From the NCBI GenBank assembly GCA_951406725.2, contig OX597817.1:42284001-42348000 (forward strand): a stretch of 64,000 nt of DNA, written 5' to 3'. Each line of letters starts with the position of its first letter. Within the stretch, counting starts at the first letter, position 1. The DNA is from Octopus vulgaris. Lineage: Eukaryota. This document shows positions 56,268 to 60,640 of the stretch, piece after piece. The notes beneath the pieces were generated by a model. The model was given only the letters and a program-made list of their open reading frames with translations, did no database searches and was not told the DNA's origin. A program made the translations under genes and the position numbers.

Positions 56268-57324
56268 TGTATGTATGTATGTATGTATAGATAGATATCA
56301 TAGATATATATCATTAACACCCTAAACATTAACATATTTTGTTTTGTATTGTTTTTCTTTTCCTTTATTTTTCCTATGTTGTTTTCAGATGTGTAGGTGT
56401 TTACTTACGTTTCCAAAGTGGAAGCCTCTTAAATCACTGAGAGTCATTTGACCTGCTAGAAAAAGATGTCAAACCTCCACCAAACCACAGTGATCATGGC
56501 TGAAACACCTTTGATTATAGGGCCACACAATCAATAACAGCAACAGCTCATCCGTAGATTACATAATTGTCTTTGCAACTACCCTTGATGAACATACAGC
56601 TTTCACTAAATCTTCTCAATTGTTTTATTCACCCTTGCTTTACTGATCTTCACAGTTTGAGCTTTCTACAGGCTCTACCAAGAATTAATCTTCCCAATCT
56701 CATGATTTTCCCCTCGTCCATTAAACTCTAATAATGATAATTATTTGTCTCCTTTTCAATAACTCTGAAAGAAAAGCAGAAAACCCAAATTATTTCCAAT
56801 ACATTTCTCTGAAATGAATATTTAGTTTGTCAGCCTTATGGTATTTATTATACATTGCCATACCTCCTGCTACTTTCTCTCTCCTAACTAAATTTAACAT
56901 ATAGTTTCTCAACTTCCTCTTCTAACATTCATACATTCATAAGCTAGAAAATACCCTCATAAACTATATTACAGTTTCATTTCCATGACATTCTCTATCA
57001 TTCAGCTTAAAACTCCTTGACAGTATGTAGCACAGTGCTAGAGCTGGTTTGGCAGTAAGACAAACATACAATTAGCTATATATATATATATATATATTTA
57101 ATCAATATAGGGTGGCAAAAAAATTTTGTAGAATTCTTTTGCCACCAGCGGCCTAGTAGGAAAAAATTAAAATAGTCATAGACCATTTTTAAGTTCAACA
57201 TCAACAATAAAGGAACGGCCATAATAGGCCATTCACCCACTAGAAATAACAGCCAAAGCTTCAACCGCAAATAAAAGTTAATTCAGTAAACCAGGAGAAA
57301 ATTTAAAAAACATTTACCCTGTAA

Positions 57325-57429
57325 TTTCTTATACGATATACTGTTTCATCTGCTGATTAATGGTAAACTAACCTGATTAAATTAAATCAAGCCAATCTTC
57401 CACAGGCCCTCAGATTCTTCAGTAAGAAA
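57325..57429 (-). ncRNA. type I HHR with long stem II, copy 1 (stem III mismatch)
   Basis: minus TTTCTTA CTGAAGA ATCTG...CAGAT GAAA CAGTATATCG TA TAAGAAA. Confidence 0.75.
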
Positions 57430-57816
57430 TAGCCCAAGACGGAACAGATATTTTCACGAGGCATTTCCGACATTGCCAAGTTTATATCTGACCTAAAATT
57501 TTCAAATCGTCGCACTCGCGCCAAATTTATCGGCAGCAAGTAAATATAAGCCGTCGATTCCATTACGGAATTAACCAGAAAATTCATAATTAATCAATAT
57601 AGGGTGCCAAAAAAATTTTGTAGAATTCTTTTGCCACCAGCGGCCTAGTAGGAAAAAATTAAAATAGTCATAGACCATTTTTAAGTTCAACATCAACAAT
57701 AAAGGAACGGCCATAATAGGCCATTCACCCACTAGAAATAACAGCCAAAGCTTCAACCGCAAATAAAAGTTAATTCAGTAAACCAGGAGAAAATTTAAAA
57801 AACATTTACCCTGTAA

Positions 57817-57921
57817 TTTCTTATACGATATACCATTTCATCTGCTGATTAATGGTAAACTAACCTGATTAAATTAAATCAAGCCAATCTTCCACAGGCC
57901 CTCAGATTCTTCAGTAAGAAA
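57817..57921 (-). ncRNA. type I HHR with long stem II, copy 2
   Basis: as copy 1; stem III TGGTATATCG (U-G wobble). Confidence 0.8.
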
Positions 57922-58308
57922 TAGCCCAAGACGGAACAGATATTTTCACGAGGCATTTCCGACGTTGCCAAGTTTATATCTGACCTAAAATTTTCAAATC
58001 GTCGCACTCGCGCCAAATTTATCGGCAGCAAATAAATATAAGCCGTCGATTCCATTACGGAATTAACCAGAAAATTCATAATTAATCAATATAGGGTGGC
58101 AAAAAAATTTTGTAGAATTCTTTTGCCACCAGCGGCCTAGTAGGAAAAAAATTAAAATAGTCATAGACCATTTTTAAGTTCAACATCAACAATAAAGGAA
58201 CGGCCATAATAGGCCATTCACCCACTAGAAATAACAGCCAAAGCTTCAACCGCAAATAAAAGTTAATTCAGTAAACCAGGAGAAAATTTAAAAACATTTA
58301 CCCTGTAA

Positions 58309-58413
58309 TTTCTTATACGATATACCGTTTCATCTGCTGATTAATGGTAAACTAACCTGATTAAATTAAATCAAGCCAATCTTCCACAGGCCCTCAGATT
58401 CTTCAGTAAGAAA
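58309..58413 (-). ncRNA. type I HHR with long stem II, copy 3 (intact)
   Basis: stem III CGGTATATCG, GTA cleavage triplet. Confidence 0.85.
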
Positions 58414-58775
58414 TAGCCCAAGACGGAACAGATATTTTCACGAGGCATTTCCGACGTTGCCAAGTTTATATCTGACCTAAAATTTTCAAATCGTCGCACT
58501 CGCGCCAAATTTATCGGCAGCAAATAAATATAAGCCGTCGATTCCATTACGGAATTAACCAGAAAATTCATAATTAATCAATATAGGGTGGCAAAAAAAT
58601 TTTGTAGAATTCTTTGCCACCAGCGGCCTAGTAGGAAAAAATTAAAATAGACGGCTTATATTTATTTGCTGCCGATAAATTTGGCGCGAGTGCGACGATT
58701 TGAAAATTTTAGGTCAGATATAAACTTGGCAACGTCGGAAATGCCTCGTGAAAATATCTGTTCCGTCTTGGGCTA

Positions 58776-58880
58776 TTTCTTACTGAAGAATCTGAGGGCC
58801 TGTGGAAGATTGGCTTGATTTAATTTAATCAGGTTAGTTTACCATTAATCAGCAGATGAAACGGTATATCGTATAAGAAA
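58776..58880 (+). ncRNA. type I HHR with long stem II, inverted copy (intact), predicted cleavage after 58873
   Basis: TTTCTTA CTGAAGA ATCTG [58 nt] CAGAT GAAA CGGTATATCG TA TAAGAAA. Confidence 0.85.
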
Positions 58881-59027
58881 TTACAGGGTAAATGTTTTTT
58901 AAATTTTCTCCTGGTTTACTGAATTAACTTTTATTTGCGGTTGAAGCTTTGGCTGTTATTTCTAGTGGGTGAATGGCCTATTATGGCCGTTCCTTTATTG
59001 TTGATATATATATATATATATATATAT

Positions 59028-59545
59028 AGCCAAGTGCAATATAATACCATAAAGGAAAAATTCAATTGTCACTAAATGTGACTAATGATGCCAAGACACC
59101 TACATTGCTAGAAATTGGAGTAAAATACTCTTTGTGATGTAGGAAGAGCACAAATGTATACACACACGCTGACAGGGGAAGAACCTGTTCCATGACCGAA
59201 CTGAGAATCTCTCAGACTAGACGTCTAGTTTCGCATATTTCCGTATGCTTTTTCAGTGAGAACAACCCAATCGGCTGGTGTTGGCTAATTCCTTCAGTCA
59301 GCATATATGTATTTACCATAGAAATCTATGAATGCAAAGGAGTATACAAAAATTTAATATAAACAGCCAAGCACAATATAATACCATAAAAGTAAAATTC
59401 AATCATCACTGAGACAACCTTTGTCAAATTTAGCTTACATTTATTTGATCTATTAACATCAGGTGTGGATTTTTCAATTATTTTCCACTTAATCACATGT
59501 TGTGTTGCATTAGATTTTAAGCTCCATACGTGGCTTGCCAACTTA
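59028..59545 (-). mobile_element. Penelope-like element 3' end: GIY-YIG C-terminal fragment plus a 337-bp HHR unit with partial tandem repeat
   Basis: LASHVWSLKS...IKWKIIEKS...SNKCKLNLTK resembles PLE LSxHIWxLK...IxWxI...CxLCxxEK; direct repeats 59028-59073 and 59365-59410. Confidence 0.75.
59210..59261 (-). ncRNA. type I hammerhead ribozyme, core G8>A
   Basis: minus TCTCA CTGAAAA A GCATA cggaaa TATGC GAAA CTAGACGTCTAG TC TGAGA; 14-nt perfect palindrome in stem III. Confidence 0.8.
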
Positions 59546-59643: not shown

Positions 59644-59694
59644 CTACCTGATGAATATGTTTGAGGTATTTCTCAACGTATGAAACTATTAATC
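59644..59694 (+). ncRNA. partial hammerhead-like motif truncated by a family C insertion
   Basis: CTGATGA ATATGTTTGAG gtattt CTCAACGTAT GAAAC; 3' strand of stem I absent. Confidence 0.45.
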
Positions 59695-60640
59695 ATCATC
59701 GTTTAACGTCTGTTTTTCATGCTGGCATGCATTGGACAGTTTGACTGGGGTTTGGGAAACCAGGAGGCTGCACAAGGCCCCAATCTGATCTGGCAGCGTT
59801 TCTACAGCTGGATGCCCTTCCTAATGCCAATCACTCCGAGAGTGTAGTGGATGCTTTTTACATGCCACCAGCACAGGGGCCATAGGAGCTGGCATCAACC
59901 ATGATCAGATGGTGCTTTTTATGTTCCACCAGCACAGAAGCCAGTGAAAGCAGCACTGGCATCAGCCACGTTCGGATGGTGCTTTTTACATGCTACCAGC
60001 ACAAGGTTCACAACTACAATTTCCATTTGATTTAATTTTGATATTGCTGTTGATGTTGATATACTTGACTCAATAGGTCTCCTCAAGCACAGCATGTCGC
60101 CCTACAATACAAGGTACTTTTGAGTGGGCTGGTTATGCGACACTGGTGTAGGTTACAGCTGTGGACTCATTTTATTTGCCGGGTCTTCTCAGTCACAGCA
60201 TATCTCCAGAGGTTTCAGTCTTTTGTCATTGCCTCTGTGAGGCCCATCATCCAAAGGTCATGCTTCACCACCTAATGTATGCATGTATATATATATACAT
60301 ATATATATCAACATCATCATCATCATCATCATCGTTTAACGTCCGTTTTCCGCGCTAGCACGGGTTGGACGGTTCGACCAGGGTCTGGGAAGCGAGGAGC
60401 TGCACCAGGCTCCAGTCTGATCTGGTAGTGTTTCTACAGCTGGATGCCCTTCCTAACGCCAACCACTCCGCGATTGTAGTGGGTGCTTTTTACGCACCGG
60501 CACAGGTGCCAGAGGAGTCTGGCATCGGCCACGATCGGTTGGTGCTTTTAACGTGCCACCGGAACAGAAGCCAGTCGAGGCGGCGCTGGCATCAGCCACT
60601 TTCGGATGGCGCTTTTTATGTGCCACCGGCACAGAAGCCA
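59692..60640 (-). mobile_element. two tandem family C elements
   Basis: starts at ~59692 and ~60312. Confidence 0.85.

Follow-up and report, generated by a model that had tools for sequence, protein, structure and literature searches.

How does an insertion come to consist of a tandem array of non-coding units and, head-to-head with it, an inverted piece of the same unit? The question is posed by a locus in the genome of Octopus vulgaris, in a stretch of 64,000 nucleotides that was analyzed as a whole and is referred to here as the window (assembly GCA_951406725.2, contig OX597817.1, positions 42,284,001 to 42,348,000 of the forward strand; coordinates count from its first letter). An earlier note on this DNA had seen in the arrangement the signature of twin priming on a multimeric or circular RNA. 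Our analysis points to a different mode of priming. We propose that a Penelope-like reverse transcriptase/endonuclease inserted the element in a single event, priming on both strands of a (TA)n target and copying one RNA molecule, likely a ligated circle, from two fixed internal sites, and we put the probability of this reading at roughly two in three.

Structure of the insertion

The tandem part of the insertion, arm A, occupies positions 57098–58650 and comprises 3.16 units of 492 nt (98% matches): 57098–57589, 57590–58081, 58082–58573 and a partial unit at 58574–58650. Unit positions are numbered from u1 = 57098, and the RNA sense is the minus strand. The inverted part, arm B (58646–59005; 360 nt, u462 to u103, RNA sense plus), is 99% complementary both to 57692–58051 and to 57200–57559. 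Remnants of the target flank the whole, (TA)n at 57077–57097 on the left and (AT)n at 59004–59028 on the right. The geometry described in the earlier note is largely borne out. The inversion is present in the assembly, with its flank-proximal end at u103 and running into the (AT)n tract; the tandem, said to stop at about unit position 77, ends at u78 by our measurement; and the 24 nt missing between the two correspond to u79–u102. At the head-to-head junction (58646–58650) arm A u78 meets arm B u458–462. The AAT(A/C)G microhomology reported there can be recognized, although it is short and imperfect, with only the last G exact.

The units of the window differ by a few single substitutions and by homopolymer lengths. 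With a GC content of 35% and a longest ATG frame of 66 aa, the unit is non-coding and encodes neither a reverse transcriptase nor a GIY-YIG endonuclease; the fold of the monomer is more stable than that of any of 100 shuffled sequences (z −5.2). Both outer ends coincide with sites that are fixed throughout the family, that of arm A with a downstream start site (u485–u2, blurred by AT microhomology) and that of arm B, at 59005, with an upstream one. The segment of about 103 nt separating these start sites is present at the A end only (57098–57199, minus strand). This segment, the “tail”, contains a 15-bp hairpin at about 57111–57146. The junction string of the insertion is unique among 64 loci compared; the locus is otherwise an ordinary member of its family.

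A predicted hammerhead ribozyme

Inspection by hand revealed a type I hammerhead on the minus strand of the tandem and on the plus strand of the inversion, in agreement with the ribozyme sense assigned earlier. It is composed of a stem I of 8 Watson-Crick pairs, a CUGAAGA core, a stem II of 5 bp with a 58-nt loop, GAAA, a stem III of 4 bp and a GUA triplet, and is predicted to cut between u234 and u235 (57331|57332 in unit 1). In unit 1 (57324–57430, minus strand) a substitution at u245 breaks one stem III pair, and in unit 2 (57816–57922, minus strand; predicted cut 57823|57824) one at u246 leaves a stem III wobble. The copies in unit 3 (58308–58414, minus strand; predicted cut 58315|58316) and in arm B (58775–58881, plus strand; predicted cut after 58873, at GUA) are intact. 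The predicted cut site is crossed three times by arm A and a single time by arm B. An Rfam scan of the window gave no match at gathering thresholds. A type III hammerhead with a cut at u344 was also considered and rejected for its poor stem I pairing; the type I reading is preferred because its stem I pairs perfectly and because its cut agrees with a pile-up of cDNA ends (see below).

Over 13 copies belonging to several subfamilies, the hammerhead core is unchanged, the triplet is GUA or GUC, and N7 can be any of the four bases; 97.5% of stem cells are paired. Covariation falls short of significance: there is a single double change, and 55 of 500 shuffles score equally high. The 43 constrained positions of the ribozyme carry none of 22 locus-wide variants, where 2.1 would be expected (two fall at N7), as against 7 of 89 single-unit variants. 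These counts are suggestive of purifying selection on the ribozyme, without reaching significance.

A 492-nt unit bearing a type I hammerhead makes the element a retrozyme, and we file it on structure as a metazoan non-LTR retrozyme, for which self-cleavage and a circular RNA are predicted. As such elements are portrayed in excerpts of the literature, it resembles them in repeating a non-coding unit in tandem, every unit bearing one type I hammerhead, in its low GC (under a ceiling of about 45–50%), in its dispersal and in its co-occurrence with Penelope-like elements (PMC7229834; bioRxiv 10.64898/2026.07.22.740005). It departs from the retrozymes of the former source in the length of its unit, 492 nt as compared to 150–450 bp, and in its 58-nt stem II loop.

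A dispersed family with two fixed start sites

A search of the genome (2.8 Gb assembly) with one unit gave at least 223 matches in 39 scored loci, out of 808 candidates; all 39 were mapped, and they were not chosen for their ends. Forty more loci are the first listed exact (TA)n-u103 matches. Exact ends of this type, or B ends, number 183 genome-wide, versus none for a control pattern. A further 20 fetches came from the top of the list of (TA)n-u1 matches, of which there are 595 on the reverse strand; 19 were taken as listed and one was picked. They added older subfamilies (85–99% identity). Two fetches holding two insertions each were kept out of the resulting set of 97 single-insertion loci; all four of these insertions are two-armed. 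The sample is non-random, with 39 of 808 candidates scored and the other 60 fetches being first listed pattern matches. The 39 scored loci define a dispersed, multi-copy family of a non-coding ribozyme-carrying repeat that is present on many contigs and resides mostly in TA microsatellites; the copy in the window is a young one.

Two inward-pointing arms, placed head-to-head, are found in 76 of the 97 loci (32/39, 32/40 and 12/18 by sample), and in several of the other 21 the second arm is too short to be mapped. Two-arm insertions invariably combine one start at u484–u7 (A) with one at u96–u113 (B), about 105 nt apart: the one-of-each rule holds in 80 of 80, and neither A+A nor B+B pairs occur among them. 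In the 39 loci not selected by their ends, 35 of 72 outer ends map to u485–u2 and 35 exactly to u103, with one each at u101 and u215; that is, 35 of the 36 outer ends at u101–103 are exactly at u103. At either end the insertion is bordered by (TA)n in 63 of 64 young two-arm loci, and no poly(A/T) was found at the outer ends. Inner junctions vary between loci. Among 64 loci, 63 are distinct; 55 are simple, of which 32 show an overlap of at least 1 nt (as given by BLAST), 19 have inserted bases and four are blunt. The longest arms measure 9.4 units. Arm A is longer than arm B by more than 125 nt in 18 of the 64 loci, and B longer than A in 30.

These regularities alter the weight of several arguments. 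The earlier note expected circularly permuted ends from a circular template and fixed ends from DNA-level tandem duplication. The outer ends are fixed rather than permuted; yet they do not imply duplication at the DNA level, because the inner junctions differ. Similarly, since the u103 end is family-wide, the outer end at 59005 must be seen as the fixed B start and not as a product of chance priming. The array end at 57098 does lie away from the ribozyme cut, as had been pointed out, but this cannot be used in favor of a circle given that a Penelope-like reverse transcriptase starts internally, according to excerpts of PMC11167929.

A few loci show peculiarities of their own. L116 and L120, which have different flanks, share the same structure (a B arm of 409–410 nt and an A arm of 21 nt) and an identical junction, located at the tail hairpin. 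In L036, L050, L062, L096 and L098, pieces of the unit in opposite orientation are inserted at or between the arms; three of these pieces start at u144–147, and the one in L098 starts at u232, adjoining the cut.

Penelope-like families in the same genome

The same kind of layout is found in two families of Penelope-like elements of the octopus. Family 1 (L159:6664–9348 on the minus strand, L160–L178), traced from a frame met by chance in L088, is young and autonomous. It has an 895-aa frame from Met, the motifs DKT, YRDD and CxxC/CxH, its own type I hammerhead, a tandem period of 3623 nt and a tail of ~160 nt. Its copies lie head-to-head in (TA)n, with ends at p726–736 and p888–896, one of each in all 27 loci where both ends are visible (a hand tally in which 12 loci had been picked for their inverted pair). 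When compared with excerpts of PMC8557442, family 1 appears Hydra-like by motifs, rather than by a tree; the label rests on motifs since Pfam gave no match on family 1 frames, even at E 0.1. Family 2 (L173:174–1000, L179–L208) is very young, with frames of up to 717 aa and most of 150 scored endonuclease matches identical. It carries a motif resembling a hammerhead in which, in the copies examined, U4 is replaced by C and GAAA is preceded by one additional base. Its ends, at +28–33 and +99–100, are about 70 nt apart, and one of each is present in 8 of 8 insertions (hand tally). The layout of both families is that of the known Penelope “tail”.

Direct kinship between the retrozyme and these elements was not detected. 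The unit matches the family 1 non-coding region no better than shuffles do (local p 0.24, global p 0.14) and has no significant match to families 2 and 3; no pLTR homologous to the retrozyme was found in the three families examined. The sole strong match in the partner search (L223) proved to be a nearby retrozyme-like piece. With no frame above 66 aa, the retrozyme is filed as a non-autonomous client and not as an autonomous member of the Penelope-like group. A lead to the partner enzyme comes from L105 (289–801), the only chimera among the 97 loci, in which a retrozyme B arm is joined head-to-head to the 3′ end of a family 2 element, inside (TA)n. This chimera indicates that two RNAs can end up in one insertion.

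The RNA template

The inner ends of the arms are informative as to the nature of the template. They accumulate in u205–237, at the predicted cut or a little before it: 18 of 64 A arms and 20 of 64 B arms end in this interval, where chance would give 4.3 for each kind of arm. Both arms end within u200–240 at 13 loci, compared to 5.6 by permutation (p 5e-5). In the two-arm loci chosen by their B end (n = 32), 28 of 51 first passes stop at the cut as opposed to 1 of 22 later passes (Fisher p 5e-5); in loci selected for full units, later passes stop there in 9 of 100 cases. Arms that go past the cut often end at u490–u50 (10 of 45 B arms and 10 of 41 A arms). The run-off pattern reads as the product of two template classes, one with a 5′ end made by the ribozyme and one that is endless.

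Sequence variants were scored in 79 young loci, after masking 46 homopolymer-adjacent positions (with one change kept) and 6 nt at arm ends. Twenty-two distinct variants are locus-wide, that is, present in every covering unit; 14 of them are private to one locus, and 10 of these 14 occur in both arms. Wherever a variant is fixed in one arm it recurs in the other (26 of 26 locus-sites), in line with the earlier suggestion that both arms derive from the same RNA sequence. Single-unit variants (111) rarely recur between loci (6 sites). Nine variant sites are partly shared between units, in 5 of the 79 loci. At sites covered once per arm, seven variants are shared and seven discordant, and the latter may be later mutations. 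Three locus-wide variants also exist as single-unit variants elsewhere, something for which chance could suffice. A mutation that must have arisen in one unit and yet fills a whole array would seem to have gone through a monomer stage, followed by amplification. As the window copy has no locus-wide variant, the part of our reading that concerns one molecule and a circle is carried over to it from the family. In a sequencing run whose RNA status is a guess (X3), one contig of 523 nt spans one period plus ~30 nt; it is at most a weak hint of a monomer circle, as a tandem transcript or DNA would fit it equally well.

Could the template have been linear throughout? Two-site Penelope-like priming might act on an uncleaved multimer, or on a short insertion, with no RNA circle ever involved; long uniform arrays would then reflect either source arrays that were already homogeneous or duplication of the DNA once the insertion was in place. 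Excerpts of PMC11167929 offer some comfort to this possibility, in that unprocessed RNA is dominant in vitro and ribozyme cleavage unnecessary, and so does the fact that autonomous family 1 likewise makes 3.6-kb tandems. Certain long arms also speak for it: L114 carries two linked variants in units 4 and 6, which are not adjacent, and L066 has a variant pattern of near period 3. However, a linear route should confine a new mutation to one unit, and this is at odds with the private locus-wide variants, most of which are in both arms, and with the large excess of single-unit over partly shared variants and their scarce recurrence between loci. Neither would it account for the drop in stopping at the cut after the first pass. 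On balance we regard a template that was linear in all cases as unlikely. The L114 and L066 patterns nonetheless suggest that some long arrays, at least, involved block duplication of the DNA or a multimeric template. Variants common to non-adjacent units of one long arm were noted in L063 as well as in these two loci; a duplicated DNA block, a multimeric circle or the repeated misreading of one damaged base could each produce them.

Template jumping generally leaves scars. A monomer bottleneck would be explained equally well if the reverse transcriptase, in telomerase-like fashion, jumped from the 5′ to the 3′ end of a cut linear monomer without covalent circularization. One locus has a 6-nt duplication exactly at the cut (L055), and the piece inserted in L098 starts at u232. 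Against this, 231 of ~232 passes through the cut are insertion-free, no substitution or deletion affects u234–244 in any of them, and in the B-end sample the cut is not a preferred stop once the first pass is over. Such clean read-through favors ligation over jumping, and we consider the latter improbable.

Arm lengths correlate (Spearman 0.52, 64 loci); however, a scheme in which two reverse transcriptases travel one ring without passing each other is unsupported as a strict rule, since 18 and 15 of the 64 loci lie beyond its limits.

Priming of the two arms

The analysis supports the earlier note in so far as reverse transcription would have been primed from both sides of one break. The question is whether the second priming occurred as in LINE-1 twin priming, in which a cDNA started from the RNA 3′ end is complemented by another primed by chance just upstream of where the first one stopped. 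There are genuine similarities: in both systems the two nicks prime on one RNA and microcomplementarity joins the cDNAs, giving a 5′ inversion (bioRxiv 10.1101/2024.08.27.596794), and the geometry in the window, with its 24-nt gap and its microhomology, would on its own be compatible with such an event. In LINE-1, though, the sites are the poly(A) tail and a spurious, variable internal position (bioRxiv 10.1101/2024.08.27.596794). In the retrozyme both sites are fixed and internal, the second one at u103 (183 exact ends), and poly(A) is absent. Nor is the inner end of the first arm tied to the second start: it falls no more than 30 nt away from u103 at 8 of 64 loci, 7.9 being expected, which renders the 24-nt gap uninformative as a signature of twin priming. 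Moreover, the arms overlap broadly in unit sequence, and inverted copies are the majority in our sample (76/97), unlike those of LINE-1. The insertion works like a Penelope-like one, three defining features of L1 twin priming fail, and L1-type twin priming is refuted as the mechanism of the family; we see hardly any chance of its having operated.

Equally slight is the prospect of a fold-back, be it of the cDNA snapping back on itself or an artefact of reads or assembly: arm B of the window, the shorter of the two, might have been copied from arm A, with unit variants that do not discriminate, and near-palindromic junctions are in excess outside the cut cluster (6 of 51 versus 1.3 by permutation, three at the tail hairpin), but two different fixed outer ends are not expected from fold-back, two Penelope-like families have the same layout, contigs from a separate DNA run (X5) likewise contain joints linking opposite orientations (weak evidence, as the sides measure 20–28 nt and none of the short contigs spans the locus), and a general fold-back is excluded by the finding that either arm can be the longer one.

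A model for two-site insertion

Excerpts of several studies on Penelope-like elements provide the elements of a model. The PAc protein nicks and extends both strands of AT-rich DNA in vitro; synthesis begins internally, at two RNA positions delimiting the genomic “tail”, and the protein is predicted to be a dimer (PMC11167929). Genomic copies are known with inverted 5′ arms and a tail of 30–40 bp that is often one-ended, and the Hydra clade targets (TA)n (PMC8557442; PMC3846280). Head-to-head repeats have been attributed to self-priming on an antisense template (PMC3846280). The octopus retrozyme resembles the Hydra-clade elements in its inverted 5′-truncated arm, its one-ended tail, its (TA)n target and the position of its hammerhead upstream of the starts. 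It differs from Penelope-like elements as excerpted in having no encoded protein, a longer tail (about 105 nt) and multi-lap arms. Start pairing is strict here, whereas the choice of start site by PAc in vitro did not differ between strands. Run-off at the cut can be seen in the octopus family, whereas RNA reads with an end at that point were not found in PMC11167929.

The first element of the model is observed: a dispersed family lying in (TA)n pairs one A with one B start. We suggest that a Penelope-like protein, probably dimeric, introduces a nick into each strand and initiates a cDNA from each of the two sites, an idea that draws on excerpts of PMC11167929 and on the layout of the two Penelope-like families in this genome. 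The positions of the inner ends suggest two outcomes. If the ribozyme has made the 5′ end of the RNA, both cDNAs would come off the template near u234 and yield short copies; if the RNA is a circle, they would continue beyond the cut and complete further laps through strand displacement, as many as the longest arms contain. The two cDNA ends would then be joined through 1–7 nt of microhomology or short inserts; such junctions are observed, and the pathway leading to them is presumed. By this model, the inference of nearly four units copied in one event is half right: the insertion is multi-unit and arose in one event, but through two cDNAs, of 3.16 and 0.73 units. The circular template, likewise, is likely on the strength of the evidence set out above and not on that of the reasons originally given. 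We lean slightly towards a more specific picture, in which every long insertion would be the trace of a single RNA circle, copied in vivo by a Penelope-like dimer whose two active sites each keep to a start point of their own and travel along the ring with strand displacement. Every short insertion would be the trace of the same machinery at work on cut linear RNA.

Retrozymes as a class are already known, and so is the tail of Penelope; a literature search, mostly at title level and with supplements set aside, did not return a head-to-head two-arm layout in retrozymes. The two-arm insertions, the fixed starts and the tail set the octopus family apart from retrozymes as excerpted from PMC7229834, where the word “inverted” does not occur, and the 2026 preprint; excerpts of PMC13282606 and PMC6431247 hold nothing further on mechanism. 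In the retrozyme paper, Cervera and de la Peña (2020, PMC7229834) proposed that a reverse transcriptase copies the circle into tandem cDNA, while Li, Clavereau and Pollet (bioRxiv 10.64898/2026.07.22.740005) lean on unequal crossover for tandem growth, again going by excerpts. In those same texts the role of retrozyme circles as templates for tandem DNA is stated to be open, as is, in excerpts of PMC8557442 and PMC11167929, the formation of tandem and inverted repeats and of the tail in Penelope-like elements. The family described here provides countable footprints for both questions, namely the strict pairing of starts, the run-off limited to first passes and the private locus-wide variants in both arms. 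It also constitutes a small substrate, a 492-nt unit in which both starts and the predicted cut are placed within a few bases, and the presence of young, intact candidate enzymes in the same genome opens the model to in vitro work. Should the more specific picture of dimer and circle be correct, two-site, two-strand priming would be the normal mechanism of Penelope. Tail, inverted pLTR and tandem pLTR would then have a common explanation, and a retrozyme array would arise with several units from the outset, in a single step.

Additional features of the loci

Three further observations concern the surroundings or contents of the insertions. Within the retrozyme arm of L059, a 180-nt common interspersed repeat ending in (GAT)n is inserted at u344 (2224–2403); on comparison by eye, repeats resembling it seem to be present in the window at about 59690–60630. 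Upstream of the insertion in the window, a pyrimidine tract followed by CAG and a short open stretch (56375–56440, plus strand) has the look of a putative terminal exon. If the insertion were part of the 3′ region of that exon, its arms would form a 360-bp hairpin in the host transcript. Finally, adjoining the (AT)n flank on the right are two 54-nt copies of a sequence, 85% alike, at 59020–59073 and 59357–59410.
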